Assembly: GCF_046105845.1 (NCBI RefSeq)
Contig: NZ_CP151004.1
Source of the DNA: Escherichia coli
GTDB taxonomy: Bacteria; Pseudomonadota; Gammaproteobacteria; Enterobacterales; Enterobacteriaceae
DNA: 64,000 nucleotides
Direction: 5' to 3' (one strand)
In this document: positions 1-61,046 of the stretch, piece by piece
Numbering within the stretch: position 1 is the first letter of the stretch
Layout: the number at the start of each line of letters is the position of its first letter
The notes under the pieces: generated by a model
The model's input: only the letters and a program-made list of their open reading frames with translations
What the model was told of the DNA's origin: nothing
Databases searched by the model: none
Program-made: the position numbers and the translations under genes

Positions 1-3000
1 GTGGTGTATTCCACATTGTTAATCGTAACGGTAAGCGGCGTGCCTTCAGCCAGCCCCGAGCTACTGCCGCTGACCACCAGCGCCTGCCCGTGCTCGATGA
101 TATTGACCACATCATCGCCTGCCACCGTATCGACCCGCAGACCGGGCAGATTGGCGTCGATGGTGATATCCCGCGTGCCGCTGCCGGTGTTGCCGTTTTG
201 ATTGGTGACCGAGGCGCTCACCGTTAAATCGCCATTACCCAGCGCCTGAATAGCGTCCGCCGGAATGCTCACGCTCCAGCTTAATCCCGGCTGTACGGTG
301 GTGGTGTAGGTATTGCCACCCAGCGTAACGGTTACCGCGTCGCCAACGGCGGCTCCAGTCACCTGCCCGCTGATGGTTTGCGCGACGCCCGCTTCGGCGG
401 CGTTAATAATATCGTCGGTTGCCACCGGGTTAATGGTCACGCCGGGCAGCGCGCTGTCAACCAGCACGTTATGGCTGGCGGTGGCGCTGTTGCCGATATT
501 ACTCGTCACCGCCGCCGTTACCGTGTAGTTGGCCTGGCCCAGTGCGGTTACCGCCGATGCCGGAACGGTGACGCTCCAGTTGCCGGAGGCGTCGGTCGTG
601 GTGGTGTAATTTTGCCCGTTCAGCGTCACGGTGATGGCGGTATTGGCTGGCTGATCGCTGGTACCGGTAATCTGGACATCAGCCCCTTTTTCGCTGGCGT
701 TTATCACATCATCGCCAGCAATGGTGTTAATACCAATTACTGGCGCGGCGGTATTGACCGTGACAGTCAGTGACTGGCTGCCCGTGTTTCCGGCGCGGTC
801 AGTCACTGACACGTTGATCGGATAACTGCCATCCACCAGTCCGCTGACAACGGAAGCCGGAACGCCCAGGCTCCAGTTGCCGGAACCATCCACCACCGTG
901 GTGTAATCCACATTATTCAGCGTCACGGTGACGATATCGCCCGCCTGAGCGCCAGTAACCGTGCCGCTGATGATTTGCGCCTGGGTGTGTTCCGGCGTGT
1001 TGATGACGTTATCGGTCGCCACCGGATTAATGGTTACCACCGGCGGCGTGGCATCGACCAGCGCCACGCGTGAGACGCTGGTCGGGTTACCGGCGATATC
1101 GTTCACGCTGGCGGTGACGGTGGCGTTGCCGTCAGCCAGTGCGCCAACGTTGGCGGCGGGAACGGTCACGCTCCAGGTGCCGTCTGGCTGCACGACGCCC
1201 TGGTACGTCTGCCCGTTCAGCGTCACCGTTACCGTCTGCCCCGGCTGGGCGTCGGTGGTGCCGGTGATTTGCAGATCCTGACCACTTTCGGCGGCGTTAA
1301 TGATGTTATCAGCGGTCAGTGGATCGATACTTAAGGCCGGGGCCTGGCTGTCGACGGTAATGGTGCGAGAGGTGTTGCCGGTATTGCCGCTGAGATCCGT
1401 CACAGAAGCGGTAATCGCCACCGCGCCGTCAGGCAGATTTCCCATCGCGGCGGCAGGTACCGTCAGACTCCAGGAGCCATCAGCCTGCACGGTAGTAGTA
1501 AAACTCTGTCCAGCCAGGGTTACTGTGACGGTTTGTCCTGTCTCGGCCTGTTGAGTGCTACCGGTAAGGGTCAGTGGCGCACCTTTTTCTGCGCCACTGA
1601 TAATGTCATCGCCGGAGACGGTGTTAATGGTGATTAACGGAGAGACACCGACCAGCGTGATTGCTCGAGACGCCGCGCCGGTATTTCCTGCAGTATCTGT
1701 CACGGTGACGAAAATCGTATTGGCTCCGCGATCCAGCGTGCGGGTTACCGCTGGGTCCAGCGCCACATTCCAGCTGCCATCTGCCAGCACAATGCCCGTC
1801 AGGACATGAGTGCCCAATTTCACCGTTACCGTATCGCCAGGAGAAGCACCGCTGACTTGTCCGGAGATGATCTGCGCGACGGCCTGCTCAGCATTATTAA
1901 GAATATCGTCGCCCGCTACGGTATTAACACTGACCACGGGTGCTGAGGTATCTACCGTGAAATTCGCGCTGTGGCTGGTGCTGTTCCCAGCCCGATCGCT
2001 GACACTGGCATTGACAGCGTAATTACCCTCCGCCAGCGCCTGGACTTCCGTGGCTGGCAGCGTCACTTGCCAGGTTCCGTCGCTACCGACGGTTGCTGTA
2101 TGGCTTTTCCCGTTGACGGTCAGTGTTACGGTTTGCCCCGCTTCTGCATTCGACGTGCCGCTCAGTACCAGCGCGACGTTATGTTCCGCAGCACTGATGA
2201 TGTTGTCCTGAGCGATGGTGTTGATGGCAAGCGTTGGCGGTTGGGTATCGACCGTTAAAAGCTGCGCGCCGGTGACCGTATTGCCTGTGGCGTCTTTCCC
2301 GCTGACCAGCACTGCCTGATTCCCTTCGCCTAACGCCTGTGCATCGGCGGTCGGCACCTGCACGCTCCAGGCACCGTTAGCGCCTACGCTGGTGGTGTAG
2401 GTTTTGCCGTTTAGCGTAACGGTGAGTTCTGTTCCCTGCGCCAGATGGCTACTGGTACCAGAAAGCGTAAACCCGGCGGCCTGTTCGCTGGCGTTAATAA
2501 TGTTATCGCCTGCGGTGGTGGCAACCTGCACGCTGGCCTGACTATTGTCGATGGTTAACGTTATCGAACCGGCGTCAGTGATGGTACTGCCGACAATTTG
2601 CACCACTGACCAGGTATGTTCACCTGCACTTTGCGTGGGTAACGAGACACTCCAGTGACCGTTGTTGTCTACCTGAGTACTGGCAATAGTATTGCCGTTA
2701 CTGTCTTTAATCTGAATAGTCGCCCCCGCCTGCCCGCTGCCGCTAAAGGTTGGCGTGGTATCATCGGTGATGTCATTGGTGGCGAGAATGCCGCGCTGAT
2801 CGCCCTGATTATCGATAACTAAAAATGATGGTGTGGCAACACCCGGTTCAGGCACAGGCTCAGCGGGTGGCGTAGGGTTATTAATCACTTCCGTTTTCGA
2901 GTCGCCATCACCACCGCTTGCCAGCAGTGCACCAAGCGCACCACCACCTACCGCCGCCCCCGCCAGCCAACCCCACGGGAAGGCGCTGGTCTGAGCAACG

Positions 3001-3368
3001 GTATCAAGAAATGGCGCAATGCTTTCAATCGCAGTGGTCTGGGCAGTCAGTTCTACGGGGGCTAATCCACCCGCAGCAGTATCGGCGAAGGTGACATGGG
3101 TTAGCTGTTGCCCATCGGCAAACACCAGTTCCGATTGTTCAGCTGTATTCGCCGCTTGCAGGAAATAACCGTTGCAGCGGATCACCGTGCCGTCCTGCAT
3201 ATAGATCAGCAGGTCATTTCCTTCACGGACGTAACGCGCAACGGCAGAGGCCTGAGCATGAACCTGCACCACGGAAGGCTCATAAATAACAACCGTGACG
3301 TCGCCAGGATTAATCAGCGTTTGTTTGACGGATGTTTTACGCGAAATAACATCAATAATCAGGCTCAT
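1..3368 (-). CDS. Giant tandem-repeat Ig-like adhesin, probable type I secretion substrate; 5' portion only, gene continues past window start
   Basis: Manual minus-strand translation from ATG at 3368-3366 (AGGAA 8 nt upstream) reads MSLIIDVISRKTSVKQTLINPGDVTVVIYEPSVVQVHAQA... with no stops over the stretch checked (3061-3368); downstream shows ~100-aa Thr/Val/Gly-rich repeats. Absent from ORF track because no stop lies in the window. Confidence 0.7.
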   Translation of the reverse strand, partial: MSLIIDVISRKTSVKQTLINPGDVTVVIYEPSVVQVHAQASAVARYVREGNDLLIYMQDGTVIRCNGYFLQAANTAEQSELVFADGQQLTHVTFADTAAGGLAPVELTAQTTAIESIAPFLDTVAQTSAFPWGWLAGAAVGGGALGALLASGGDGDSKTEVINNPTPPAEPVPEPGVATPSFLVIDNQGDQRGILATNDITDDTTPTFSGSGQAGATIQIKDSNGNTIASTQVDNNGHWSVSLPTQSAGEHTWSVVQIVGSTITDAGSITLTIDNSQASVQVATTAGDNIINASEQAAGFTLSGTSSHLAQGTELTVTLNGKTYTTSVGANGAWSVQVPTADAQALGEGNQAVLVSGKDATGNTVTGAQLLTVDTQPPTLAINTIAQDNIISAAEHNVALVLSGTSNAEAGQTVTLTVNGKSHTATVGSDGTWQVTLPATEVQALAEGNYAVNASVSDRAGNSTSHSANFTVDTSAPVVSVNTVAGDDILNNAEQAVAQIISGQVSGASPGDTVTVKLGTHVLTGIVLADGSWNVALDPAVTRTLDRGANTIFVTVTDTAGNTGAASRAITLVGVSPLITINTVSGDDIISGAEKGAPLTLTGSTQQAETGQTVTVTLAGQSFTTTVQADGSWSLTVPAAAMGNLPDGAVAITASVTDLSGNTGNTSRTITVDSQAPALSIDPLTADNIINAAESGQDLQITGTTDAQPGQTVTVTLNGQTYQGVVQPDGTWSVTVPAANVGALADGNATVTASVNDIAGNPTSVSRVALVDATPPVVTINPVATDNVINTPEHTQAQIISGTVTGAQAGDIVTVTLNNVDYTTVVDGSGNWSLGVPASVVSGLVDGSYPINVSVTDRAGNTGSQSLTVTVNTAAPVIGINTIAGDDVINASEKGADVQITGTSDQPANTAITVTLNGQNYTTTTDASGNWSVTVPASAVTALGQANYTVTAAVTSNIGNSATASHNVLVDSALPGVTINPVATDDIINAAEAGVAQTISGQVTGAAVGDAVTVTLGGNTYTTTVQPGLSWSVSIPADAIQALGNGDLTVSASVTNQNGNTGSGTRDITIDANLPGLRVDTVAGDDVVNIIEHGQALVVSGSSSGLAEGTPLTVTINNVEYT

Positions 3369-3470
3369 AATGGCATTCCTGATAAATGGCGCACATCCTT
3401 AGCGAGTCCATTTATCTAAATAAGACAAAGGTAATCACTTAACAACGGCCCACTATTAATAATGGCAGGA

Positions 3471-4826
3471 TTATTTCAAGTCGGGTAAGTCGTTGTATAA
3501 GCCCTGTTTAATTCCCGCTAATGGAATAAGGTTATTCACCGCAGCGGCATAATTTACGGCGGCGACCCAGCCATCATAATTGGCATTTATTTCAGCCGAT
3601 TGCGCCTGAAAGACATCTTGCTCGACGGTTAATAGATCATTCAGACTGCGTTTGCCCAATTTATATTCATTTTGGTACACTTCTCGCGTTTTGTGCGCAC
3701 TTTCGGATTGTGCTAAACCGGCTTCTTCGCGACCTCGTGCGCCGGTCCAGTTCGCATATGCCACAGACGCTCGTTGCAGCACATCCAGTTTTGCCTGTTC
3801 GACCTGCGAGGCAGAGATTTTTTGTTGCCCTTCAGCTTGTTGCACCTGGGCTGAAACTGCGCCGCCCTGATACAGCGGCGCGTTAACGTTCAGTTGTAAC
3901 TGATCATCCCAATACGAGCGGTCGCTGGTCTGGTAGCGCGTTTTGCCCCCCTGAATACTCAGCGTTGGCCAGTATTGCGCTTTCGTTTTTTCCACGCCGT
4001 ACTGTGCTGACTGGCGTAAGTTTTCTGCCGCCAGCACCAGCGGGATGGACTGGTAATCAATATTTTTCAGCGACACCGGCTGCTCGGCTAATTCAGCAGG
4101 TGGCGCGGCTATCGCCTCCGGCTGTACGCCAGTGAGCACCGCCAGTTGCGCTTTGGCGCTTGCCATCTGCGCCTGATATTGCTCCAGCGTTGAGCGCATT
4201 CCGGCAATGCGCGTCTGGGCTTGTAATTCATCCGACGATGAGTTCAGGCCAGCGTTAGCGCGCAATGCCGCCATGTTGTAGACGTTTTCCAGCGAGTGAA
4301 TATTGCGTTGAGCCGCATCGCACAAAGCCTGATAACGACTGACTTCCATATAGGCAGTCGCCGTTTTCTCTGCAACATCGGTTAAGGTTGCCATCAATTT
4401 AAAGCGGTAGCTGTCACGGGCGGCAGTTTGCAGATTGATATCGTTGTTTGTTTTACCAAAGTCATACACCAGCTGTGTCAGGGTTATGCCATACGAAACG
4501 TTGTTATCAAGCCTGCCGCTGGAATCCGTTTGTCGGGACGGCCCCGCGTTGCCGGTTAATCCAACGTGCGGATACCAGGCACTTTTGGCTTCATCAATTT
4601 GCGCTTCGCCAATGCCTATCTGCGCCGCCTGTTGAGTGACGTCGGGATTTCGCGCAAAGGCGCGTAATATACTTTCCTGTAAAGATAATCGGGCAACTGG
4701 CGTTACCGCTGGGGCGTTCGCCCATTGTGGCAGCGGTGCAGCAATTGTAGCTTCTCCCATCACCATAAAACTTATTAAAAAAATAAACCCATTATTTTTA
4801 CGGCTTTTAAACTGGAATCGCGCCAT
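3471..4826 (-). CDS. TolC-family outer membrane efflux protein, probable type I secretion outer-membrane component
   Basis: 451-aa ORF with N-terminal signal-like hydrophobic segment and TolC-like composition; sits directly upstream of the adhesin gene on the same strand. Confidence 0.75.
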   Translation of the reverse strand: MARFQFKSRKNNGFIFLISFMVMGEATIAAPLPQWANAPAVTPVARLSLQESILRAFARNPDVTQQAAQIGIGEAQIDEAKSAWYPHVGLTGNAGPSRQTDSSGRLDNNVSYGITLTQLVYDFGKTNNDINLQTAARDSYRFKLMATLTDVAEKTATAYMEVSRYQALCDAAQRNIHSLENVYNMAALRANAGLNSSSDELQAQTRIAGMRSTLEQYQAQMASAKAQLAVLTGVQPEAIAAPPAELAEQPVSLKNIDYQSIPLVLAAENLRQSAQYGVEKTKAQYWPTLSIQGGKTRYQTSDRSYWDDQLQLNVNAPLYQGGAVSAQVQQAEGQQKISASQVEQAKLDVLQRASVAYANWTGARGREEAGLAQSESAHKTREVYQNEYKLGKRSLNDLLTVEQDVFQAQSAEINANYDGWVAAVNYAAAVNNLIPLAGIKQGLYNDLPDLK

Positions 4827-5129
4827 AGATAAGTCACTTCCTTCCAGGTCATTATTTTAACTGGTTTTTATAACCAGTCTCATTTTATTAAGAAGGGTAA
4901 TAACTTGTGCATCTCTTTTGTCGATCATTGATATGGGCAAAGAAATGCAGCTAAAAAGCTTATACGTTATTTATTTAGAATACACTACGACTTTTAGATT
5001 ACCATCATACACATTAAGAATAATCCACGGTAATAAGTGATTAGCATCACAGATTTATCGCGTATATATCATTTTTTTGTGACTTATTTATTAAAGGAAT
5101 AAGAAAGGAAATTTGAATTAAAGACAAAG

Positions 5130-5152
5130 GCGCAGTACAGGCTGTACTGCGC
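5130..5152 (-). terminator. Hairpin downstream of ybaT
   Basis: Inverted repeat gcgcagtacag/ctgtactgcgc just 3' of the ybaT stop; weak U-tract. Confidence 0.4.
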
Positions 5153-5163
5153 ACAGAGAGGTG

Positions 5164-6456
5164 TTATACGGTTTTATTGCGCTTCATGACCATTGCCACA
5201 ATAAGGCTGAGTAAGATTGCACCAATAATCCATATCAACGCACGGCTGCCCTGGGACCACAGGCTGTAGATAAAGCCAACGATCACCAACAACATCACCA
5301 ACGTACCTACGATAAGAATCGGCAACGAGGCGTGAATATCATGACGCAGGCGGATCGCCACCACAAACACCGCCAGATAGCAAATCAAAAAGGTGGCGCT
5401 GGCAACGCTGGCGAGTGAGCCTAAATTTAGTGCCGCCGTCATCAGCATAATCAACACCACGACAATGATGTTGCCCCAGGTACTCTGCCGCCACAGGGAT
5501 TTATTCATTAGCTTCGGCAGTTCGCGTTCGCTGCCCATGTTGTCCATGATGTTAAACACGGCGAACAGGTTCGCGTTGATGGCTGAAGCCGTCGCCAGTA
5601 AAGCGCCGATGACGACGATCACATAACCCACATGCCCGAGCAGCGGAGAAGCAGCCTGCGCTACGGCGGTATCGGCATATTTTTCTAACTCTAATGCCGA
5701 TACATCGCTAAGCAAAACCAGCGCCAGCGAGATATAAAGCAATGTGGTAACGCCAATCGCCACCAGAAACGCCCGTGGCATAATGATCTGCGGATCTTTC
5801 ACTTTATCCGCCGCGTTCGCCATCATGCCAAAGCCCGCATAGGCAAGGAAGGTTATCCCGATACAGGAGAAGAACGCACCGGAGCTGGGGGGCGCAGAGA
5901 CGGAAATATGCGCCGGTTGCAGCGACCAGACACCGGCAATAATCAGCAATAACAGGATCATCATTTTAATGCCGACGAGGATCACTTCCAGCCGCCCTAC
6001 CGCATGGTTGCTTAAGGAGTTGAAAAGCGTCATCACCGCAATGATCCCCAACGCGTAGAGCAATATAAGGTGCTCCTCCTGACTGCCTTCATGCAAAAAC
6101 TGCACGGCATAAGCGCCAAAAGCACGGGCGACCATGGCGATGCTCACCGCCAGCGTCAACAGGTACAATAACGAGAGTGCCAGCGAAAAGACGCCGTTGC
6201 CTAATCCGCGACGAAAGAAGTCGATAATACCGCCATTGCTGGGATAGCTCGCCCCCAGGCGCGCATAGGCATAACCGGAAAACATCGCCACAATACCGCC
6301 AAAAGCAAAGGCGACCCAGGTCGAGGCTTCCATTAGCAACGCAGCCTGCCCCAGCAGCGCGAAGATCCCCGCCCCCACCATTGCCCCAATACCGATGGAA
6401 ACGACGTTCCATAGACCGAGGGGTTTGTTATCGTTATTACCTTCCGTGTTCATCAT
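5164..6456 (-). CDS. ybaT: APC-family amino acid transporter YbaT
   Basis: 430-aa polytopic membrane protein; matches recalled YbaT and is directly downstream of glsA. Confidence 0.9.
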   Translation of the reverse strand: MMNTEGNNDNKPLGLWNVVSIGIGAMVGAGIFALLGQAALLMEASTWVAFAFGGIVAMFSGYAYARLGASYPSNGGIIDFFRRGLGNGVFSLALSLLYLLTLAVSIAMVARAFGAYAVQFLHEGSQEEHLILLYALGIIAVMTLFNSLSNHAVGRLEVILVGIKMMILLLLIIAGVWSLQPAHISVSAPPSSGAFFSCIGITFLAYAGFGMMANAADKVKDPQIIMPRAFLVAIGVTTLLYISLALVLLSDVSALELEKYADTAVAQAASPLLGHVGYVIVVIGALLATASAINANLFAVFNIMDNMGSERELPKLMNKSLWRQSTWGNIIVVVLIMLMTAALNLGSLASVASATFLICYLAVFVVAIRLRHDIHASLPILIVGTLVMLLVIVGFIYSLWSQGSRALIWIIGAILLSLIVAMVMKRNKTV

Positions 6457-6458
6457 GA

Positions 6459-7391
6459 TCAGCCCTTAAACACGTTATAGCCGAGTTGCTTAGCGACCGA
6501 TGCCACCATTTTTTGACCGCGAACACTGTTGCCTTCTTCGTCCAGCGGTGGTGAGAACGCGGCAATTCCCATCACGCCAGGGACGACCGCCAGAATACCG
6601 CCACCTACACCGCTTTTGCCCGGTAAACCAACGCGATACGCCCAGTCACCGGAGCGACCATACAGCCCTTCCATCATCATTTCAGCCAGAATGTACGGCA
6701 CGTTGTCGGCCTGAAGAACGCGTTTATGCGTCAGCGGATTCACACCACCCGCCGCCAGCGTCGCGCCAAGCGTTGCCAGTTCAACAGTATTGATGAGCGT
6801 GGAGCACTGACGGGTGTACACGTCACAGGCTTCCATTGCATCACAATAGAGATATCCGGCGGAGTACAGCAGCCAGGCAATGGCCCGGTTATGGAAGTTG
6901 GTTGTTTGTTCCGACTGGTTTACTTCGTCAGAGAGCGCTACCTGCTCACCAGCCAGTTGTTGTTGGATATGTAAAATTCGCTGCCAGCGTTGTTCGGCAT
7001 TTTCAGCGTTAATCAGGCTGGTGGTGGCAATAGCGCCAGCATTTACCAGTGGCGACAGCGGTTTGCCGCCATGCAACTCTAAGGCGATAACTGAGTTAAA
7101 GGGCAATCCGGTCGGGTCAGCGCCAACTTTGTCCTGTACCGCCTGCGGGCCGACATCTTCTAACGCAAGGGCTAACGTACAGACTTTCGAGATGGATTCC
7201 AGCGCAAAGCGGTAATCACTATCACCCGCGCGATATATGTTGCCATCGCAGGTCACAATAGCCACTGCTGCCAGTTGACCAGGTACATTCGCCAGAAAGG
7301 GAATGTAGTCGGCATTTTGTCCGCCGTTAAGTGAGTGAAATTGGGTGTAAGCCTGATCCACTGCCTGCTGTAATTTGTTTGCATCTAACAT
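6459..7391 (-). CDS. glsA: Glutaminase 1
   Basis: 310-aa ORF matching recalled GlsA/YbaS (MLDANKLQQAVDQAYTQFHSL...). Confidence 0.92.
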   Translation of the reverse strand: MLDANKLQQAVDQAYTQFHSLNGGQNADYIPFLANVPGQLAAVAIVTCDGNIYRAGDSDYRFALESISKVCTLALALEDVGPQAVQDKVGADPTGLPFNSVIALELHGGKPLSPLVNAGAIATTSLINAENAEQRWQRILHIQQQLAGEQVALSDEVNQSEQTTNFHNRAIAWLLYSAGYLYCDAMEACDVYTRQCSTLINTVELATLGATLAAGGVNPLTHKRVLQADNVPYILAEMMMEGLYGRSGDWAYRVGLPGKSGVGGGILAVVPGVMGIAAFSPPLDEEGNSVRGQKMVASVAKQLGYNVFKG

Positions 7392-7582
7392 CTTTTGTTA
7401 ACTCCTTTTTATAGATGCGGGAGGTAATTCCTCACCCCGGTGCCGATTTTCAGGCATCCTGATTTAACTTAGCACCCGCAACTTAACTACAGGAAAACAA
7501 AGAGATAAATGTCTAATCCTGATGCAAATCGAGCCGATTTTTTAATCTTTACGGACTTTTACCCGCCTGGTTTATTAATTTC

Positions 7583-7613
7583 TTGACCTTCCCCTTGCTG
7601 GAAGGTTTAACCT
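7583..7613 (+). promoter_or_regulatory. copA promoter with CueR (MerR-type) operator
   Basis: -35 TTGACC at 7583-7588; dyad CCTTCC-N7-GGAAGG at 7587-7605; long MerR-style spacer before the -10 region. Confidence 0.75.
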
Positions 7614-7653
7614 TTATCACAGCCAGTCAAAACTGTCTTAAAAGGAGTGTTTT

Positions 7654-10158
7654 ATGTCACAAACTATCGACCTGACCCTGGACGGCCTGTCCTGCGGTCA
7701 CTGCGTTAAACGCGTGAAAGAAAGTCTCGAACAGCGCCCGGATGTTGAGCAGGCGGATGTGTCTGTCACTGAAGCGCACGTTACCGGGACTGCCAGTGCA
7801 GAACAGCTGATCGAAACCATCAAACAAGCGGGTTATGACGCATCTGTAAGCCACCCAAAGGCTAAACCGCTGGCGGAGTCATCAATCCCGTCGGAAGCAC
7901 TGACAGCGGTTTCTGAGGCGCTTCCGGCAGCGACCGCCGATGACGATGACAGCCAGCAGTTGCTGCTGAGCGGCATGAGCTGCGCCAGCTGTGTCACCCG
8001 CGTACAAAATGCGCTGCAAAGCGTACCGGGCGTCACTCAGGCACGGGTAAACCTGGCGGAGCGTACTGCGCTGGTGATGGGCAGTGCCTCCCCACAAGAT
8101 TTAGTGCAGGCGGTGGAAAAAGCGGGCTACGGCGCGGAAGCGATTGAAGATGACGCTAAACGCCGCGAGCGCCAGCAAGAAACCGCCGTCGCTACGATGA
8201 AGCGCTTCCGCTGGCAGGCGATTGTCGCACTGGCGGTGGGTATCCCGGTGATGGTCTGGGGGATGATCGGCGATAACATGATGGTCACCGCCGACAACCG
8301 CAGCCTGTGGTTGGTTATCGGCCTGATAACCCTGGCGGTAATGGTTTTCGCCGGCGGGCATTTTTACCGCAGCGCATGGAAAAGCCTGCTGAACGGTGCA
8401 GCGACGATGGATACGCTGGTGGCGCTAGGTACTGGCGTGGCGTGGCTCTATTCGATGAGCGTCAACCTGTGGCCGCAGTGGTTCCCGATGGAAGCGCGAC
8501 ATCTTTATTACGAAGCCAGTGCGATGATTATCGGTTTGATTAATCTCGGCCATATGCTGGAAGCACGCGCACGTCAGCGTTCTTCTAAGGCGCTGGAGAA
8601 ATTACTCGATTTAACCCCACCGACGGCGCGCCTGGTTACTGACGAAGGTGAAAAAAGCGTGCCTCTGGCAGAAGTGCAGCCAGGTATGTTGCTGCGCCTG
8701 ACGACCGGCGATCGCGTGCCGGTAGATGGCGAGATTACCCAGGGCGAAGCATGGCTGGATGAAGCGATGCTGACGGGCGAACCAATCCCGCAGCAAAAAG
8801 GCGAAGGCGATAGCGTCCATGCCGGGACAGTGGTACAGGACGGCAGTGTGCTGTTTCGTGCCAGTGCGGTCGGCAGCCATACTACGCTGTCACGAATCAT
8901 TCGCATGGTGCGCCAGGCCCAGAGCAGCAAGCCTGAAATCGGCCAACTGGCGGATAAAATCTCCGCTGTGTTTGTGCCGGTGGTGGTAGTCATTGCGCTG
9001 GTCAGTGCGGCAATCTGGTATTTCTTTGGCCCGGCACCGCAAATTGTTTATACCCTGGTGATTGCCACCACGGTGCTGATTATCGCCTGTCCGTGTGCGC
9101 TGGGACTGGCGACGCCGATGTCGATTATTTCGGGCGTCGGGCGGGCGGCTGAGTTTGGTGTGCTGGTGCGGGACGCCGACGCGCTGCAACGCGCCAGTAC
9201 GCTCGACACCGTGGTGTTCGATAAAACCGGGACGCTGACCGAAGGGAAGCCGCAGGTTGTCGCAGTAAAAACATTTGCTGATATTGATGAAGCGCAAGCA
9301 TTGCGTCTGGCGGCGGCGCTGGAGCAAGGTTCCAGCCACCCGCTGGCACGGGCGATCCTCGATAAAGCAGGTGATATGCAGCTACCGCAGGTCAACGGTT
9401 TCCGCACATTGCGCGGGCTGGGTGTGAGCGGTGAAGCTGAAGGTCATGCGGTATTGCTGGGCAATCAGGCGCTGTTAAATGACCAGCAAGTTGATACTAA
9501 AGCGATTGAGGCAGATATTTCAGCTCAGGCATCGCAAGGGGCAACGCCTGTGCTGCTGGCGGTTGACGGGAAAGCGGTGGCCTTGCTGGCAGTACGCGAT
9601 CCGTTGCGTAACGATAGCGTGGCGGCGCTGCAACGTCTGCATAAAGCGGGATATCGTCTGGTGATGTTGACCGGGGATAACCCAACCACCGCCAATGCGA
9701 TCGCCAAAGAAGCAGGGATTGATGAGGTGATCGCCGGGGTGCTGCCGGACGGTAAAGCCGAAGCGATCAAACGTCTGCAAAGTGAAGGACGTCAGGTGGC
9801 AATGGTGGGCGACGGCATTAACGACGCGCCAGCGCTGGCCCAGGCGGATGTCGGTATTGCGATGGGTGGCGGCAGTGATGTTGCCATTGAAACCGCGGCG
9901 ATTACCCTGATGCGCCATAGCCTGATGGGTGTTGCAGATGCGCTCGCGATTTCCCGCGCAACGCTGCGCAATATGAAGCAGAACCTGCTCGGTGCGTTTA
10001 TCTACAACAGCATTGGTATTCCGGTCGCCGCCGGTATTTTGTGGCCGTTCACTGGAACACTGCTTAACCCGGTGGTTGCCGGAGCGGCAATGGCGCTATC
10101 GTCGATTACCGTAGTGAGTAACGCCAACCGGTTACTGCGGTTTAAACCGAAAGAGTGA
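7654..10158 (+). CDS. copA: Cu(I)-translocating P-type ATPase
   Basis: 834-aa ORF with two N-terminal GMSCxxC metal-binding domains, CPC and DKTGT motifs. Confidence 0.96.
7854..7860 (+). other. copA: Programmed -1 ribosomal frameshift site in copA (slippery heptamer C CCA AAG) giving the CopA(Z) chaperone
   Basis: CCCAAAG lies in the 0 frame at codons 67-69; the -1 frame reads CCC AAA GGC TAA, terminating after ~70 aa. Confidence 0.7.
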
Positions 10159-10234
10159 TTGGTATTTACTTAATGCGTTTGTGAGATCCAGTTCTTGTTG
10201 CGCTCCTTTTATGAGTAATGCCATATAAAGTGAC

Positions 10235-10560
10235 TGGCGCAGGGAGCGCGCAGGGGGCGGCCAATCGCCGCCGCCCCCTGCCCCCCCGGGCTCTGGCGAA
10301 CAAAATCGCCGCTGCGCGGTACCCTCAGCTTATCCCTTGCGGCTACCGGGTCGGGCGCGAGGTAACATCCCTGTAAAACGCGCCCTCAGCCCACATCCAT
10401 GTGGGCTGCCCCGGCCTTCAGGGAACGCCTCGGCGATTTTGACGCCACCAACACCGGTGCAGTCTTTCGTTTCAAAGCAAAAACAATTTTTCGATCATAT
10501 TTAAGCTACCACTGAACAAGCCTCATAACTCCATTTGCGCCATCCCTCCCTGCGCGCTAG
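10235..10560. repeat. GC-rich intergenic element with nested inverted repeats, unknown function
   Basis: 10-bp inverted repeat gcgcagggag (10237-10246) / ctccctgcgc (10546-10555); inner inverted repeat aaaatcgccg (10302-10311) / cggcgatttt (10431-10440); perfect 11-bp GC stem 10251-10261 / 10270-10280; hairpin 10388-10407. No ORF of 60 aa or more. Confidence 0.4.
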
Positions 10561-10586
10561 CATGATATTTCACAAAGGGAGGTCGT

Positions 10587-11381
10587 ATGGATCTGTTGTA
10601 CCGGGTAAAAACGCTTTGGGCCGCGCTGCGCGGTAATCATTACACCTGGCCTGCTATCGATATCTCTCTTCCCGGCAATCGCCATTTTCATCTGCTCGGC
10701 AGTATTCATATGGGTAGCCACGATATGGCTCCCCTGCCCACCCGTTTGCTCAAAAAGCTCAAAAACGCCGATGCGCTGATCGTCGAGGCGGATGTTTCCA
10801 CCAGCGATACGCCTTTTGCTAATTTGCCTGCCTGCGAGGCGCTGGAAGAGCGCATTAGCGAGGAGCAACTCCAAAACCTGCAGCACATTAGCCAGGAGAT
10901 GGGCATTTCTACCTCACTCTTTTCTACCCAACCGCTGTGGCAAATCGCGATGGTTCTTCAGGCGACACAGGCGCAAAAACTGGGGCTGCGGGCAGAGTAT
11001 GGTATCGATTACCAGCTATTGCAGGCGGCGAAGCAACAACATAAATCCGTGATTGAACTGGAAGGGGCAGAAAACCAGATTGCCATGTTGCTCCAGCTCC
11101 CTGACAACGGACTGGCGCTGCTGGACGATACGCTGACCCACTGGCACACCAATGCACGGTTGCTGCAACAAATGATGAGCTGGTGGCTGAACACGCCGCC
11201 GCAAAATAATGAAATAACGCTGCCTAATACGTTCAGTCAGTCGCTGTACGATGTGTTGATGCATCAGCGAAATCTCGCCTGGCGGGATAAATTACGCGCC
11301 ATGCCGCCGGGGCGATATGTGGTCGCGGTCGGTGCACTACACCTGTATGGAGAAGGGAATTTACCGCAAATGTTGCGCTAA
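10587..11381 (+). CDS. ybaP: TraB-family protein YbaP
   Basis: 264-aa ORF matching recalled YbaP. Confidence 0.9.
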   Translation: MDLLYRVKTLWAALRGNHYTWPAIDISLPGNRHFHLLGSIHMGSHDMAPLPTRLLKKLKNADALIVEADVSTSDTPFANLPACEALEERISEEQLQNLQHISQEMGISTSLFSTQPLWQIAMVLQATQAQKLGLRAEYGIDYQLLQAAKQQHKSVIELEGAENQIAMLLQLPDNGLALLDDTLTHWHTNARLLQQMMSWWLNTPPQNNEITLPNTFSQSLYDVLMHQRNLAWRDKLRAMPPGRYVVAVGALHLYGEGNLPQMLR

Positions 11382-11463
11382 AAAAATGGCCAATATCGCT
11401 ATTGGCCCGTCAAAGAGGAATTTCATTTTTTTATTATTATGCCGTCACTTTAAGCGACGGTGT
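11381..11463 (-). ncRNA. chiX: ChiX (MicM/SroB) Hfq-dependent sRNA
   Basis: Minus strand reads ACACCGTCGCTTAAAGTGACGGCATAATAATAAAAAAATGAAATTCCTCTTTGACGGGCCAATAGCGATATTGGCCATTTTTTT, matching recalled ChiX including terminator hairpin and U-tract; in the ybaK-ybaP intergenic region as in K-12. Confidence 0.85.
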
Positions 11464-11569
11464 AACTCGATTGTCGCTCAATCTCACCATCCTGCCAATA
11501 CTCTTAGGCAAGATGACTCTTTTTTTTGGACCGCCATCAGGCGTATGCTTGCTTCGTTTTTTTGTTTAA

Positions 11570-12064
<495 letters not shown>

Positions 12065-12069
12065 GCATT

Positions 12070-12098
12070 GTGCCGGATGCGAACATCCGGCACTTTCG
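12070..12098. terminator. Hairpin between convergent ybaK and ushA
   Basis: Perfect palindrome gtgccggatg-cgaa-catccggcac. Confidence 0.5.
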
Positions 12099-12100
12099 GA

Positions 12101-13753
12101 TTACTGCCAGTTCACCTCACCTTTCGGTTCATAGACACTCACATCCAGCGGCGAGCTCTTCTGGATATACGCTTTCAGCACTTCGGCATCAATAAAGCCG
12201 GTATTCACATAGCCCGGTTTGTTATCAAGGCGCGGATAGCCATCACCGCCGGTGGCATTGAAGTTTAATGTCGCCATACGGTAAGTTTTCGCTGGATCGA
12301 CCGGTTCGCCTTTGATTTTAAGGTCGTTCAGTTTGCCGTCTTTCGCCACAAAGCTAACGTTGGCAAATTGCGGGTAGGCACCTGAATCTGGCTTCATTTG
12401 TGCGACGGCGGTCAGGTAATCAATCACCTCTTTACCGGTCATGTCGGCATACACCACCACATTGCCGAATGGCTGCACTTTCAGCACGTTTTTATAGCTG
12501 ATATCGCCTGCTTCGATAGAATCACGAATTCCGCCTCCACTCATCACCGCAAAGTCAGCACCAGTGCGATCCATTTGTGCTGCCAGAATTAACCGCCCCA
12601 TATTGGTCTGTACAAAACGCACTTTGTCACGATCGCCTTCCAGACGACCATTGGTTTCGCCTATTTTCACTTCCAGCTGCGCTTTGCCTTTGTTCTGGAA
12701 CGGCGATAACAGCGAGATCATTTGCTGGTTTTCAGCGATTTCAGGGGTGTACAGCACGCGCTCGCTTTTCCCGTCTTCCCAGGTCACTTTCTTCTTCAGG
12801 TTCACCGGAATCAGCTGGTAGTTAACCATTTTCATTTCGCCATTACGAAACTCAAAATCAGCCCGTCCCACGTATTTGCCCCACTCATGCGCCTGCACAA
12901 TCCAGATGCCGTTTTGTTGATCCGGTTTACATGGCGTACCCGGCACGTAATCGACCTGTTTTTTGTTTTCTGCCGCCATGCAGACCGGATCTTGCGAGTG
13001 ACCACCGACGATCATCGCCAGCGATCCGGCAGGCAGCGCGCGTGCCATCTCCACATCGCCCGGTGCGTTAGAGCCGTGCTCACCATTGTCGTAATGCCCC
13101 ATATGGGTCGCCGCGATAATAATGTCTGGCTTTTCTGTCTGTTGTAGCTCCTGAATCACCAGCTTCGCTTCATCGGCGGGCTTACGGAACTCAATATCGG
13201 TGAAGTTTTCTGGGTTGCCTAACTTCGCTGTGTCATCCGTCGTCAGGCCAATAACGGCAATTTTCAGATCCTGACGCTTAAACAGCGCCCACGGTTTAAA
13301 CAGGCGCTCGCCGGTACTTTTCTGGTAGATATTGGCAGAAAGCAACGGGAACTTTGCCCACTTTTCCTGCTGGCGTAATACGGTGAGCGGGTTATCAAAT
13401 TCATGATTACCGATTGCCATCGCGTCATAGCCCACCAGATTCATGCCGCGAAAATCAGGTTCGGCATCCTGTAAGTCGGACTCGGGCACGCCAGTATTAA
13501 TGTCGCCACCGGAAAGTAGCAGCACGCTACCGCCTTCAGCCGCAACCTCTTTGCGGATACCATCCACCAGCGTTTTTTGCGCCGCCAGACCATATTCGCC
13601 ATATTCATTGCGCCAAAAATGCCCATGATGATCATTGGTGTGCAGAACTGTAATTTTGTAGGTTTTATCCTGCTCATACGCCAGAGCAGTTTCACTCGCC
13701 AGTGTAAATGTGGTTAACAGTGCTAATGCCACGCCCCGCTGCAATAATTTCAT
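12101..13753 (-). CDS. ushA: UDP-sugar hydrolase / 5'-nucleotidase
   Basis: 550-aa ORF with signal peptide and metallophosphatase motifs (HTNDHHG). Confidence 0.95.
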   Translation of the reverse strand: MKLLQRGVALALLTTFTLASETALAYEQDKTYKITVLHTNDHHGHFWRNEYGEYGLAAQKTLVDGIRKEVAAEGGSVLLLSGGDINTGVPESDLQDAEPDFRGMNLVGYDAMAIGNHEFDNPLTVLRQQEKWAKFPLLSANIYQKSTGERLFKPWALFKRQDLKIAVIGLTTDDTAKLGNPENFTDIEFRKPADEAKLVIQELQQTEKPDIIIAATHMGHYDNGEHGSNAPGDVEMARALPAGSLAMIVGGHSQDPVCMAAENKKQVDYVPGTPCKPDQQNGIWIVQAHEWGKYVGRADFEFRNGEMKMVNYQLIPVNLKKKVTWEDGKSERVLYTPEIAENQQMISLLSPFQNKGKAQLEVKIGETNGRLEGDRDKVRFVQTNMGRLILAAQMDRTGADFAVMSGGGIRDSIEAGDISYKNVLKVQPFGNVVVYADMTGKEVIDYLTAVAQMKPDSGAYPQFANVSFVAKDGKLNDLKIKGEPVDPAKTYRMATLNFNATGGDGYPRLDNKPGYVNTGFIDAEVLKAYIQKSSPLDVSVYEPKGEVNWQ

Positions 13754-13970
13754 ACTTCTCTCCCTGACCTGATTTCAACGTGTTGAAAAATAGTATGACG
13801 CGACATCATAGACAAGTCTGCGTCCGGTGAAGATAAATCTGTATCCAGATTAGAAATTCTGTATTCAGCGTTGAGACTTCCTTCAGGGGGCGCATACAGG
13901 TATGTTAGTCGGGTAATAATCACAAATAAGATCATTCTTTACATCGCAACCCTGAAAAAGTGACTTTCCT

Positions 13971-15191
13971 ATGGCAATGAGTGAACAAACCCAGCCTGTG
14001 GCGGGCGCGGCTGCGTCAACGACCAAGGCCCGAACATCGTTTGGTATTTTAGGTGCTATCAGCCTCTCACATCTGCTGAACGACATGATCCAATCGCTGA
14101 TTCTGGCGATTTATCCTCTGCTTCAGTCAGAATTTTCTCTGACATTTATGCAGATTGGCATGATAACCCTCACCTTCCAGCTCGCCTCTTCGCTACTGCA
14201 ACCAGTGGTCGGCTACTGGACCGATAAATATCCGATGCCGTGGTCGTTGCCAATTGGCATGTGCTTTACCTTAAGTGGTCTGGTGCTGCTTGCGCTGGCG
14301 GGCAGTTTTGGCGCAGTTCTGCTGGCGGCGGCGCTGGTCGGTACCGGTTCATCGGTCTTTCATCCGGAATCTTCTCGCGTGGCCCGTATGGCTTCTGGCG
14401 GGCGTCATGGCCTGGCGCAATCTATCTTTCAGGTCGGCGGCAACTTTGGCAGTTCCCTGGGGCCCTTGCTGGCAGCGGTAATTATCGCGCCTTATGGCAA
14501 AGGCAACGTAGCCTGGTTTGTGCTTGCGGCACTGCTGGCGATCGTGGTGTTGGCGCAAATCAGCCGTTGGTACTCGGCACAGCATCGAATGAATAAAGGA
14601 AAACCAAAAGCGACGATTATCAATCCACTGCCGCGCAACAAAGTGGTACTGGCGGTCAGCATTCTGTTAATCCTCATTTTCTCGAAATATTTCTATATGG
14701 CGAGCATCAGCAGCTATTACACCTTTTATCTGATGCAAAAATTCGGATTATCTATCCAGAATGCCCAGCTTCATCTGTTTGCCTTCCTGTTTGCCGTTGC
14801 GGCAGGTACGGTGATCGGCGGGCCTGTAGGGGATAAAATTGGGCGAAAATATGTGATTTGGGGCTCTATCCTCGGCGTTGCGCCGTTTACGCTGATTTTA
14901 CCCTACGCCAGCCTGCACTGGACGGGGGTTTTAACGGTGATTATTGGATTTATCCTCGCTTCGGCATTCTCTGCCATTCTGGTCTACGCTCAGGAGCTGC
15001 TTCCGGGACGTATCGGTATGGTTTCTGGACTCTTTTTCGGTTTTGCTTTTGGCATGGGAGGTCTGGGAGCGGCAGTTCTGGGGCTTATCGCCGATCACAC
15101 CAGCATCGAGTTAGTCTATAAAATCTGTGCTTTCCTGCCACTATTGGGGATGTTGACCATATTCCTGCCTGATAACCGGCATAAAGAGTGA
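13971..15191 (+). CDS. fsr: Fosmidomycin resistance MFS transporter
   Basis: 406-aa MFS-type membrane protein in the conserved position. Confidence 0.9.
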   Translation: MAMSEQTQPVAGAAASTTKARTSFGILGAISLSHLLNDMIQSLILAIYPLLQSEFSLTFMQIGMITLTFQLASSLLQPVVGYWTDKYPMPWSLPIGMCFTLSGLVLLALAGSFGAVLLAAALVGTGSSVFHPESSRVARMASGGRHGLAQSIFQVGGNFGSSLGPLLAAVIIAPYGKGNVAWFVLAALLAIVVLAQISRWYSAQHRMNKGKPKATIINPLPRNKVVLAVSILLILIFSKYFYMASISSYYTFYLMQKFGLSIQNAQLHLFAFLFAVAAGTVIGGPVGDKIGRKYVIWGSILGVAPFTLILPYASLHWTGVLTVIIGFILASAFSAILVYAQELLPGRIGMVSGLFFGFAFGMGGLGAAVLGLIADHTSIELVYKICAFLPLLGMLTIFLPDNRHKE

Positions 15192-15198
15192 TTTCATT

Positions 15199-15223
15199 GC
15201 AGCCAAAGGCAAACTTTGGCTGC
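15199..15223 (+). terminator. Hairpin after fsr
   Basis: Inverted repeat gcagccaaagg/cctttggctgc. Confidence 0.45.
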
Positions 15224-15429
15224 ATCATTTTACAGTCGCCATAAGCCTTTCCTCTGTTAAACCGCCTTCAGTTTTCCGATCCGTGCTTTTTTTTGCAGCT
15301 AATTCCATTTTTCTGCAAAATTCAACAATTATTCATAAACATCATCAATGAAATTGTCATAAACTATTACCTGTAATTTTGGTTTTCCCGGCCAAAAATG
15401 GACAATAACCACCAGGAAAAGGAGACGGA

Positions 15430-17106
15430 ATGCATCACGCCACCCCGCTTATCACCACCATTGTTGGCGGCCTTGTGCTCGCCTTTATCCTCGGCATGCT
15501 GGCCAATAAACTACGTATTTCTCCTCTGGTGGGATATCTGTTAGCGGGTGTGCTGGCAGGACCATTCACTCCGGGCTTTGTTGCCGATACCAAGCTTGCG
15601 CCGGAACTGGCTGAACTGGGCGTCATTCTGTTGATGTTTGGCGTGGGTCTGCACTTTTCGCTGAAGGATTTGATGGCGGTAAAGGCCATCGCCATTCCCG
15701 GCGCGATCGCCCAGATAGCCGTGGCGACGCTGCTGGGTATGGCGCTCTCCGCCGTGCTGGGCTGGTCGTTAATGACCGGTATCGTGTTCGGCTTATGCCT
15801 TTCCACCGCCAGTACCGTGGTGTTACTGCGCGCACTTGAAGAACGGCAATTAATAGACAGTCAGCGTGGGCAAATCGCCATCGGTTGGTTGATTGTGGAA
15901 GACCTGGTAATGGTTCTGACGCTGGTGTTGCTGCCCGCAGTGGCAGGAATGATGGAACAAGGCGATGTGGGCTTTGCCACTCTTGCTGTCGATATGGGGA
16001 TCACCATCGGCAAGGTGATCGCATTTATCGCCATTATGATGCTGGTAGGTCGCCGTCTGGTGCCGTGGATTATGGCACGCAGCGCAGCAACCGGTTCCCG
16101 TGAGCTGTTTACCCTGTCGGTGCTGGCGCTGGCGTTAGGGATTGCCTTTGGTGCGGTGGAGCTGTTTGATGTCTCCTTTGCACTCGGTGCGTTCTTTGCC
16201 GGGATGGTACTGAACGAGTCTGAACTGAGTCACCGTGCCGCCCACGATACGCTGCCATTGCGCGATGCGTTTGCGGTGCTGTTTTTTGTCTCCGTCGGGA
16301 TGTTGTTTGATCCGTTAATTCTGATTCAGCAACCGCTGGCAGTGCTGGCGACGCTGGCAATTATTCTGTTTGGTAAATCGGTCGCGGCACTGTTCCTTGT
16401 GCGTCTGTTTGGTCACTCCCAGCGCACGGCGTTAACCATCGCCGCCAGCCTTGCGCAGATTGGTGAGTTCGCATTTATCCTGGCGGGACTGGGAATGGCA
16501 TTGAATTTACTGCCGCAGGCCGGACAAAACCTGGTACTGGCAGGGGCGATTTTGTCGATTATGCTCAACCCGGTCCTGTTTGCGCTGCTGGAGAAATATC
16601 TGGCGAAGACCGAAACGCTGGAAGAGCAGACGCTGGAAGAGGCTATCGAAGAAGAGAAGCAGATCCCAGTGGATATTTGCAACCATGCGCTACTGGTAGG
16701 TTACGGTCGTGTAGGCAGCCTGCTGGGGGAGAAATTGCTCGCCTCTGATATTCCGCTGGTGGTGATTGAGACGTCACGAACCCGTGTTGATGAACTGCGA
16801 GAGCGCGGGGTCCGCGCAGTATTGGGCAATGCGGCGAACGAAGAAATTATGCAACTGGCGCATCTGGAATGTGCAAAATGGCTGATCCTGACGATTCCCA
16901 ACGGTTATGAAGCGGGCGAGATTGTGGCGTCTGCCCGCGCGAAAAATCCGGATATTGAGATTATCGCCCGCGCCCATTATGACGATGAAGTGGCGTATAT
17001 CACCGAACGTGGCGCGAATCAGGTAGTGATGGGTGAGCGTGAAATTGCTCGTACTATGCTGGAACTGCTGGAAACACCACCGGCGGGTGAAGTGGTGACG
17101 GGGTAA
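15430..17106 (+). CDS. ybaL: CPA2-family cation/proton antiporter with C-terminal TrkA-N domain
   Basis: 558-aa ORF: membrane domain plus Rossmann-type GYGRVG motif. Confidence 0.92.
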   Translation: MHHATPLITTIVGGLVLAFILGMLANKLRISPLVGYLLAGVLAGPFTPGFVADTKLAPELAELGVILLMFGVGLHFSLKDLMAVKAIAIPGAIAQIAVATLLGMALSAVLGWSLMTGIVFGLCLSTASTVVLLRALEERQLIDSQRGQIAIGWLIVEDLVMVLTLVLLPAVAGMMEQGDVGFATLAVDMGITIGKVIAFIAIMMLVGRRLVPWIMARSAATGSRELFTLSVLALALGIAFGAVELFDVSFALGAFFAGMVLNESELSHRAAHDTLPLRDAFAVLFFVSVGMLFDPLILIQQPLAVLATLAIILFGKSVAALFLVRLFGHSQRTALTIAASLAQIGEFAFILAGLGMALNLLPQAGQNLVLAGAILSIMLNPVLFALLEKYLAKTETLEEQTLEEAIEEEKQIPVDICNHALLVGYGRVGSLLGEKLLASDIPLVVIETSRTRVDELRERGVRAVLGNAANEEIMQLAHLECAKWLILTIPNGYEAGEIVASARAKNPDIEIIARAHYDDEVAYITERGANQVVMGEREIARTMLELLETPPAGEVVTG

Positions 17107-17111
17107 ACGGT

Positions 17112-17914
<803 letters not shown>

Positions 17915-18018
17915 ATCAGCATACTTGTCCTTAGCCTTCTGCAGTGACAGCTGGTAGTACAGCGTGCTTCTGGCCAGCCCTGCAGCCTTTAACAGGTCAG
18001 ACTGGCAGTGTCCGCACC

Positions 18019-18549
18019 TCAGGCTCCGGATGACTTTCGTTTTTTCTCCAGCTCCTGGCGCTTTTTTTCCAGGAGATGCTCCTGCATGGCTTTCAGATAT
18101 GCATTTTCTGCGCGAAGATAACGCAGCTCATTCTTCATCTCTTCCGGCGTCATGTTTGCCTCGTTTTCATGGGTATCATCAGAACGGGTCATGCTTTTCT
18201 CCTTCCTGCGCCTGATAAAGGCCTCATTACCAGATTTGCGGTAGCCTTTTATCCAGTTTTTAACCGTGTTGTGGCTGGGAATGTTAAACCGGGCAGCTAC
18301 CCGGGGTAGAGACTCAGAATGCCCGAGAGCATAAAGAACCACGCAAAGTTTATCTTCAGGAGAATAGCTACGCTTGTGTCTGCAATCCAGTGCCCGAGGA
18401 CCGTGAAGAAGAAAAAGATTAATCCAGTGTGAGAGGCTGGTGTGAGAAAGTTGAAAGAGTTTTGCCGTAGAAATGATGCCTGCATGACCAGCCAGGTAAT
18501 GATTTACAGCGGCAAGTTTTACTTCAAATGAATGTTTCATAAACTGCAC
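18019..18549 (-). CDS. IS3-family transposase OrfA (HTH plus leucine zipper)
   Basis: 176-aa ORF; C-terminal heptad leucines (LRYLRAENAYLKAMQEHLLEKKRQELEKK). Confidence 0.85.
   Translation of the reverse strand: MQFMKHSFEVKLAAVNHYLAGHAGIISTAKLFQLSHTSLSHWINLFLLHGPRALDCRHKRSYSPEDKLCVVLYALGHSESLPRVAARFNIPSHNTVKNWIKGYRKSGNEAFIRRRKEKSMTRSDDTHENEANMTPEEMKNELRYLRAENAYLKAMQEHLLEKKRQELEKKRKSSGA
18061..18067 (-). other. A AAA AAG programmed -1 frameshift motif at the end of IS orfA
   Basis: Minus strand reads CTG GAA AAA AAG CGC in the orfA frame, the classical IS3-family slippery heptamer. Confidence 0.6.
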
Positions 18550-18591
18550 CTTCAGATGTCAGATTATGTCCAACATTTGGGGTGCAGTTCA

Positions 18592-18654
18592 GCCATCGCA
18601 TCAGGCATTGAGAGCAAAATGCCAGATGCGGCGTGAACGCCTTATCTGGCCTAC
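18592..18654. repeat. REP/BIME sequences: right half of the interrupted REP plus a second REP
   Basis: gccatcgcatcaggc completes the interrupted palindrome; gccagatgcggcgtgaacgccttatctggcctac (18621-18654) matches the REP consensus. Confidence 0.6.
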
Positions 18655-18668
18655 GAACCGACGATAAC

Positions 18669-19973
18669 TTAACGATCCCAGTAAGACTCTTCCAGGCTGT
18701 CTTCACGCTCCGGCAAGCCGCGCGTTAAACGAGGTGAATGCTGGTTCAGTACCTGATAGCTCACACGGTTAGCATATTTACACACCTGCGCTAACGATGA
18801 ATAAGTTAACCAGGTGAATTTATGTTTGCTGGAGTTTGGTACGTTGCTACGGTGGTAGCTGTTGGCGGTAATATCATGCAGCAACGCTGCCAATGCGCCA
18901 TCCCCTGCTCCGTTAGTGTTCATGATTTTTTCCGGCCCGCCCATGTACGGCGCAATGTGCGAATAGACACGCAGCGGATTCTGGCAATCCTTGTGGCGCA
19001 TGGCGCGGCTAAACTCATACTGGTTAAATTCCGCTATAGCGCCCGGCAGCAGTGGATGCTGGGTTTTACGTTTCGCTTCGTCTTCAGTAAAGCCCGCCAT
19101 ATACAAGCCGATTGGCCCGGCGGTGCACAGCACCAGATCAACCCAGTCCAGCGCCTTGTCAGATGCCAACAACGGATCGCTTTCTCCGGTCAACGCTTCG
19201 GCCTCATCTTCGTTCATCGCAAGGATAGAGACGTGATCTTTGAGGAATTGCTGCCACCACTGCGGATTCTCGGCAATGACAAACTTGGTGCCCAGCGTCA
19301 GCACCACCGGTACGTTATATTTCTTCGCGTACTCAATGGCTTTCATGGTTGCTTCCGGCATGGGTTCACCCGGCTTGCAACGCACCAGATAAGAAGTGAG
19401 AACCAGTGCCGAGGCTCCGGCAATCACATCTTCCGGAATACTTTCAGCCCGCAGCTGGTTCATGTGGCCAGGGCTGATAGCAAAGGTACGTTCCCCGGAC
19501 TCGCCAATCAGCGTAAAGCAACGACCAATCGGGCCATCCACGCCTTGTAGATAGTTAAGATCGGTACGGCTGGAGGTGTTACACAGGTAACGATAGGCAT
19601 AGCTGCCAATTTCAATATTGCTGCACATGACGCCCAGCAGCACCGAACGGTCGTCCGCGAGCACCGAGTAGTTGTGCATAGTGTTACCAATGGTGCCACC
19701 CGCAAATTGATGGGTAATCAGGTTTTTCTGTTTTAGTTCCTGATAAAGCGCTTCGGCTACGTCATCCTCAATCACCAGTGAATGCCCGGCGCTTAATCCA
19801 TAACGCTCAATGAATTCGTCATCCACTTTCGCTTCAATATCGACCAGCGTTTGATCGATACCCACTACCCAGGCGGCGCTGGTTTCGTTTTCTGGCTGGA
19901 ATTGCTGAAGCAGCGGATCGCGTGCATTTACAGGGAAGTAATGTTTGGATTTACGTTTGCCGGGAAATTTCAT
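18669..19973 (-). CDS. gsk: Inosine-guanosine kinase
   Basis: 434-aa ORF matching recalled Gsk. Confidence 0.95.
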   Translation of the reverse strand: MKFPGKRKSKHYFPVNARDPLLQQFQPENETSAAWVVGIDQTLVDIEAKVDDEFIERYGLSAGHSLVIEDDVAEALYQELKQKNLITHQFAGGTIGNTMHNYSVLADDRSVLLGVMCSNIEIGSYAYRYLCNTSSRTDLNYLQGVDGPIGRCFTLIGESGERTFAISPGHMNQLRAESIPEDVIAGASALVLTSYLVRCKPGEPMPEATMKAIEYAKKYNVPVVLTLGTKFVIAENPQWWQQFLKDHVSILAMNEDEAEALTGESDPLLASDKALDWVDLVLCTAGPIGLYMAGFTEDEAKRKTQHPLLPGAIAEFNQYEFSRAMRHKDCQNPLRVYSHIAPYMGGPEKIMNTNGAGDGALAALLHDITANSYHRSNVPNSSKHKFTWLTYSSLAQVCKYANRVSYQVLNQHSPRLTRGLPEREDSLEESYWDR

Positions 19974-20124
19974 GGTTGTTTTTACGGGTGGTTAACTGAG
20001 CGGCGAATGTTAACACAATCTGACGGGAGCGCGCGAGACACAGCCAGTTTCAATATCAGCAGGCGGGATCGCATTTTCATGGCAGTGGTTCCTTACAATG
20101 ACGTAATTTGAAAGGAGTTTTTGC

Positions 20125-60936: not shown

Positions 60937-61018
60937 AGAGCTCTCTCTTAGTTTAATTTCCGCCAGGTAATCAGATGACACGACTGTGCTTCACGCCATC
61001 TATTAACATGTACGTCAG

Positions 61019-61046
61019 TATATGGGGATGTTTCCCCCACATTCAA
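61019..61046 (-). promoter_or_regulatory. Heat-shock (sigma32-type) promoter of lon
   Basis: Minus strand reads TTGAAT (-35), 13-nt spacer, CCCCATATA (-10). Confidence 0.55.

Follow-up and report, generated by a model that had tools for sequence, protein, structure and literature searches.

Sequence anatomy and conservation of a predicted CueR-controlled copA promoter in an Escherichia coli lineage

At positions 7583 to 7613 of the stretch of Escherichia coli DNA analysed here (64,000 nucleotides, hereafter called the window), a perfect inverted repeat lies inside a long promoter spacer. The question this raises is whether the repeat is the operator through which CueR controls copA, the gene of a Cu(I)-exporting ATPase, or whether it serves other genes, answers to another sensor or is a palindrome without a regulator. 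Judging from the sequence, we consider it about 97% probable that 7583-7613 corresponds to PcopA, from which sigma-70 holoenzyme transcribes the Cu(I) efflux ATPase gene copA, and that a CueR operator occupies its 19-bp spacer. As such, the element is already known, being a canonical and extensively characterised E. coli promoter.

The original prediction had read TTGACC as a −35 element followed by the dyad CCTTCC-N7-GGAAGG at 7587-7605, and both were found at exactly these coordinates on direct reading (Table 1). The long spacer in which it placed the dyad was counted at 19 bp, a length within the supra-optimal range of MerR-family promoters (19 to 20 bp; PMC9909328), and the span that it had delimited, 7583-7613, runs exactly from the −35 through the −10 hexamer. 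Dyad symmetry reaches one base beyond CCTTCC and GGAAGG on each side, giving arms of 7 bp. The resulting repeat sits in the spacer and overlaps it as MerR-family operators do, shares 3 bp (7586-7588) with the −35 hexamer and leaves a gap of 2 bp (7606-7607) between the core box and the −10 hexamer, with 7 bases (7589-7595) separating the end of the −35 hexamer at 7588 from the dyad centre at 7596. An exact copy of the dyad is expected approximately 0.004 times per window; the 64 kb contain one, and 100 dinucleotide-preserving shuffles contained none. Degenerate CueR boxes with up to two mismatches numbered 5 in the rest of the window, compared with 2.0 ± 1.3 expected; this count is at chance level, and they were rejected as sites.

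Table 1. Positions of the promoter elements and neighbouring genes in the window
Feature	Position	Strand	Basis or remark
−35 hexamer of PcopA, TTGACC	7583..7588	+	Direct read; same in K-12
Predicted CueR operator, 21-bp inverted repeat ACCTTCC-N7-GGAAGGT	7586..7606, centre 7596	.	Matches the published CueR core box (PMC8169799) and the CueR-binding oligonucleotide (PMC9004249)
Core dyad CCTTCC-N7-GGAAGG	7587-7605 (CCTTCC 7587-7592; N7, CCTTGCT, 7593-7599; GGAAGG 7600-7605)		Direct read
PcopA spacer, 19 bp	7589..7607	+	Length counted; sigma-70 optimum plus 2 bp
−10 hexamer of PcopA, TAACCT	7608..7613	+	Direct read; 2 bp past the core box, as in wild-type PcopA (PMC8169799)
copA transcription start (inferred), +1 at ~7620	7619..7621	+	Dyad centre 7596 taken as −24 (PMC9909328)
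Shine-Dalgarno sequence of copA, AAGGAG	7642..7647	+	Direct read; 6 nt ahead of the ATG
copA, Cu(I)-exporting P1B-type ATPase, 834 aa	7654..10158	+	NCBIfam equivalog NF007952
glsA, glutaminase A	6459-7391	minus	Divergent from copA across a 262-bp intergenic region
ybaT, APC-family permease	5164-6456	minus	Divergent side of copA
TolC-family outer-membrane gene, intact, 451 aa	3471-4826	minus	Divergent side of copA, after ybaT

A sigma-70 consensus scan restricted to spacers of 16 to 18 bp returned no promoter over 7392-7700. Such an empty result is expected for a promoter with a 19-bp spacer, because the scan was limited to shorter ones, and it is no evidence against a promoter at PcopA. A literature search for primer-extension mapping of copA yielded nothing usable, and the start site was therefore placed by means of the numbering in the literature, in which the dyad centre is −24; a start at ~7620 would put the −10 hexamer at −12 to −7.

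The open reading frame that begins 41 bp past the −10 hexamer matched NF007952 over its full length with 1747 bits (cutoff, 1316), and the gene at 7654-10158 is annotated as copA in matching E. coli genomes. The copper-homeostasis gene that marks a member of the CueR regulon (copA or cueO) is thus found downstream of the promoter, in the form of the CopA equivalog. Within copA, the programmed −1 ribosomal frameshift site C CCA AAG is intact at 7854-7860; after the slip, the −1 frame encodes G and then reaches a stop ending at 7865, giving the 70-aa copper chaperone CopA(Z), in agreement with the two-piece CDS annotated in K-12 as a soluble Cu(+) chaperone. Beyond copA, the alignment with K-12 is broken at 10154-10515 (361 bp in the window versus 728 bp in K-12), and both 10159-10586 of the window and strain 7/2 lack ybaQ, whose K-12 position is between copA and ybaP.

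The original prediction had proposed a comparison with the published copA promoter. Positions 7583-7609 are, letter for letter, the 27-bp copA promoter DNA TTGACCTTCCCCTTGCTGGAAGGTTTA that was used in electrophoretic mobility shift and electron paramagnetic resonance work with CueR (PMC9004249). The whole glsA-copA intergenic region of 262 bp matches that of K-12 MG1655 at every base apart from a single additional A in the copA 5′-untranslated region, where a run of AAAA at 7640-7643, just upstream of the Shine-Dalgarno sequence, replaces the AAA of MG1655; the AAAA run is common to many other E. coli genomes. In the cryo-electron microscopy study of CueR with RNA polymerase, PcopA is described as having the core box CCTTCC-N7-GGAAGG, a 19-bp spacer, a repeat that overlaps the −35 hexamer by 3 bp and, in the wild type, 2 bp between core box and −10 (PMC8169799), and all four features are present in the window promoter. 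Cu(I)- and CueR-dependent transcription has been demonstrated on the identical sequence by in vitro transcription, mobility shift assays and a lacZ reporter with CuSO4 (PMC8169799). The register agrees as well: 21-bp sites of the CueR subfamily need a spacer of 19 to 20 bp and a centre 7 bp from the 3′ end of the −35 hexamer (PMC5045206), and this is the arrangement found here if the 7 bp are assumed to count the bases in between. The MerR-family architecture of CueR and copA that was originally proposed is accordingly borne out by the CopA gene downstream, the identity with K-12, the published CueR-binding 27-mer and the geometry seen by cryo-electron microscopy.

Three characterised promoters were compared with the window promoter. 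K-12 PcopA has the same sequence from upstream of the −35 hexamer to the copA ATG, apart from the single A in the 5′-untranslated region, and the same genes on either side, copA downstream and glsA in divergent orientation. K-12 PcueO is alike in its TTGACC −35 hexamer, CCTTCC-N7-GGAAGG core, 19-bp spacer and overlap between box and −35, but differs in N7 (CGTAAGG, versus CCTTGCT in PcopA), in the −10 hexamer (TATGCT versus TAACCT), in the seventh arm base, which is asymmetric (GGAAGGA), and in the product of its gene, a periplasmic multicopper oxidase rather than an ATPase. The founding member of the promoter class is the mer operator-promoter of Tn21 and Tn501. There too, the regulator, MerR, occupies a dyad in a 19-bp spacer and switches from repressor to activator by distorting the DNA (PMC9909328), whereas the dyad sequence is another one, and the site is 22 bp long and centred at a distance of 8 bp from the −35 hexamer, instead of 7 bp as for CueR (PMC5045206). 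The mer system differs further in its effector, Hg(II), and in gene order: merR diverges from the same region, while in E. coli there is no linkage between cueR and the operator.

The comparison with mer bears on the alternative that survives best, namely, that the palindromic operator has a second target in the divergent glsA-ybaT operon, in the way that the mer operator serves merR and merT oppositely. Such an action on this acid-resistance operon might occur, given that glsA lies on the minus strand, divergent from copA, and starts from the same 262-bp intergenic region. In addition, cueR is the divergent neighbour abutting the operator in Enterobacter, Superficieibacter and a metagenome-assembled Pantoea genome, its start codon lying on the opposite strand, ~10 to 14 bp away from the dyad of the copA operator, in a mer-like arrangement (L050:3312-3345, L061:1355-1388, L079:2073-2107 and L116:5089-5122), so that a bidirectional ancestral state is plausible. 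The alternative is nonetheless improbable: the start codon of glsA is ~190 bp away from the dyad, the minus-strand hexamers beside the dyad, TTAAAC and TCAAGA, match the sigma-70 consensus poorly, and only copA and cueO are named as CueR targets (PMC9909328). A minus-strand glsA promoter on the same operator was rejected as the main reading on account of these poor hexamers.

The position of cueR relative to the promoter is not that of K-12. In K-12, cueR is found ~2.6 kb from PcopA, just beyond ybaT; in the window, this place is taken by the TolC-family gene and the end of the adhesin gene siiEA. Neither cueR nor any other MerR-family gene was detected by tblastn in the 64-kb window (best E value, 0.43), and cueR lies outside it because the siiEA/type I secretion island displaces the gene. 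The window begins inside this island, with the end of the BapA-related giant adhesin gene siiEA in 1-4826. In genomes sharing the TolC-family gene of the window, strain 7/2 being one, an insertion, the siiEA giant-adhesin/type I secretion island, separates ybaT from cueR; in strain 7/2, cueR is about 28 kb from the copA promoter. The TolC-family gene of that strain is frameshifted, type I secretion genes of the ABC and HlyD families follow in its island, and the start of cueR overlaps the end of the HlyD-family gene. In Escherichia, glsA and ybaT separate cueR from the operator, and in the lineage of the window, the siiEA island does so too. Since 5424 of the 5426 complete E. coli genomes have cueR, an intact cueR is very likely to be carried by the source genome, as inferred from this species-level frequency, and the shift in its location relative to PcopA should have no effect on a regulator that acts in trans.

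With cueR at a distance, a second alternative was weighed, in which the operator is used mainly by another MerR-family sensor of monovalent metals, such as a horizontally acquired GolS- or HmrR-like paralogue, instead of CueR. Heavy-metal relatives in the MerR family place their sites alike, between the −35 and −10 hexamers of promoters with long spacers (PMC5045206), and positions 1-20000 of the window have a best match of just 98.2% identity among complete genomes (E. coli 042), from which it follows that this lineage is not closely represented in the genome collection, although its copA promoter core is unchanged. We regard a second sensor as very unlikely, however, as the sequence is that of the K-12 CueR site, cueR is near-universal in the species, and neither the search of the window for MerR-family genes nor anything else in the data points to an extra paralogue. 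Among the 5426 E. coli genomes, the copA promoter and cueR each had two matching places on plasmid records, presumably plasmids that carry the chromosomal segment.

Within E. coli, the 262-bp intergenic region was present in 5422 of 5426 complete genomes and was 100% identical in many chromosomes, by which the window is identified as E. coli chromosome. Its 61-bp core (7570-7630) was 100% identical in 5332 of the 5422 genomes, whereas the full 262 bp reached at least 99% identity in only 3101 of them. Sequence variation avoids the promoter core, by a comparison that is rough and in which the genomes are not independent of each other.

Across species, ACCTTCC-N7-GGAAGGT was searched for in one genome per species, and at least 120 loci were obtained. 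Among the matches listed, 34 of 49 dyads with TTG in front (TTGACCTTCC, either strand) had a copA-like or cueR/MerR-like gene no more than 150 bp away, compared with 3 of 73 dyads lacking TTG that had a copA- or cueR-like gene as close (Fisher P = 4e-15). The dyads without TTG were, among the matches listed, mostly terminator-like hairpins or parts of coding sequence, and only the TTGAC-extended subset is informative. Again among the matches listed, the layout of TTGACC and dyad recurs upstream of copA or cueR genes in several phyla. The scan also returned an extended palindrome, CACCTTCCCC-N-GGGGAAGGT, on eight contigs of the Ruminococcaceae metagenome-assembled genome RUG14283 (L068-L075; also L031 and L032), with no copA or cueR in the vicinity, and it resembles a dispersed palindromic repeat element that has no connection with CueR.

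The copA promoters of nine Enterobacterales were aligned (Escherichia coli, E. albertii, two Citrobacter, two Enterobacter, Superficieibacter and two Pantoea). The loci had been chosen by an exact match of the arms, and arm conservation in this alignment is therefore a matter of ascertainment; only the positions outside the search pattern count. At fixed spacing, these unselected positions were invariant in nine of nine promoters for C-TTG of the −35 region, the first CC of the dyad centre, and TTTA and CT(T) of the −10 region, the TA..CT of the −10 hexamer being the same in all nine. The AGGAG of the Shine-Dalgarno sequence was conserved, and both flanks diverged; mean column identity was 59%. 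That the dyad is a chance palindrome, with copA transcribed from an ordinary, unregulated sigma-70 promoter, is hardly credible: short palindromes are common, and among the matches listed, 70 of the 73 dyads without TTGAC lie away from copA and cueR, but against this stand the low expected frequency of the dyad in the window and its absence from the shuffles, its exact published position in a 19-bp spacer, the lack of a promoter with a 16- to 18-bp spacer in the intergenic region, the identity with DNA that CueR binds in experiments (PMC9004249) and the sharp phylogenetic footprint in the nine Enterobacterales.

For PcopA under the control of CueR, the anatomy, the identity with the characterised promoter, the conservation and the identity of the gene come from the present sequence analysis, and binding, bending and the response to copper come from the literature on the identical sequence. 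Published work refines the activation by Cu(I) that was originally predicted in two respects: CueR is bound to the DNA in both of its states, the apo form being the repressor and the metal-loaded form the activator, and it responds to Ag(I) and Au(I) besides Cu(I) (PMC9909328). At the window promoter, a CueR dimer would occupy ACCTTCC-N7-GGAAGGT on the face of the DNA opposite RNA polymerase. As long as no metal is bound, the −35 and −10 hexamers would be too distant from each other and out of phase, and the promoter would be off. Upon binding of Cu(I), Ag(I) or Au(I), CueR would kink and under-twist the spacer at the dyad centre; the main kink has been placed at this centre, numbered −24, and the distance between −35 and −10 has been found to be shortened to that of a ~17-bp spacer (PMC9909328; PMC8169799). 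The distorted spacer would then give the two hexamers a 17-bp-like geometry, allowing the sigma-70 holoenzyme to engage both, and this engagement would be helped by contact of CueR with sigma's non-conserved region, a contact reported to assist activation by CueR (PMC8169799; PMC9909328). Transcription from near 7620 would lead to expression of copA.

Whether copper regulation has been rewired quantitatively in this lineage, relative to K-12, was considered in view of the move of cueR by ~25 to 28 kb, the extra A in the 5′-untranslated region and a possible action of the operator on glsA-ybaT; we think this very doubtful. The extra A could have an effect on how CopA or CopA(Z) is translated. 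If cueR were cotranscribed with the adhesin secretion genes, as the layout in strain 7/2 would permit, the amount of CueR would vary together with adhesin expression.

Elsewhere in the window, an IS3-family, IS1397-like element occupies 17160-18591 between ybaL and gsk, with its transposase open reading frames on the minus strand. Strain 7/2 has the element at this site too, in the opposite orientation, which suggests either an independent insertion at a shared target or an inversion. Rfam matches at gathering level were sroB (ChiX sRNA) at 11380-11463(−), the DnaX frameshifting element at 26574-26638(−), the small SRP RNA (ffs) at 43272-43368(−) and sraA at 61008-61103(+), and these four are expected content for such a region of E. 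coli.

The PcopA/CueR pair is the model system for allosteric transcription activation based on DNA distortion, and whole-cell biosensors for copper, silver and gold are built on it. The value of the present assignment is that of a correct annotation, and it opens no new question. For the organism, the intact and invariant PcopA would mean that the canonical cytoplasmic response to copper has been retained in this E. coli lineage.
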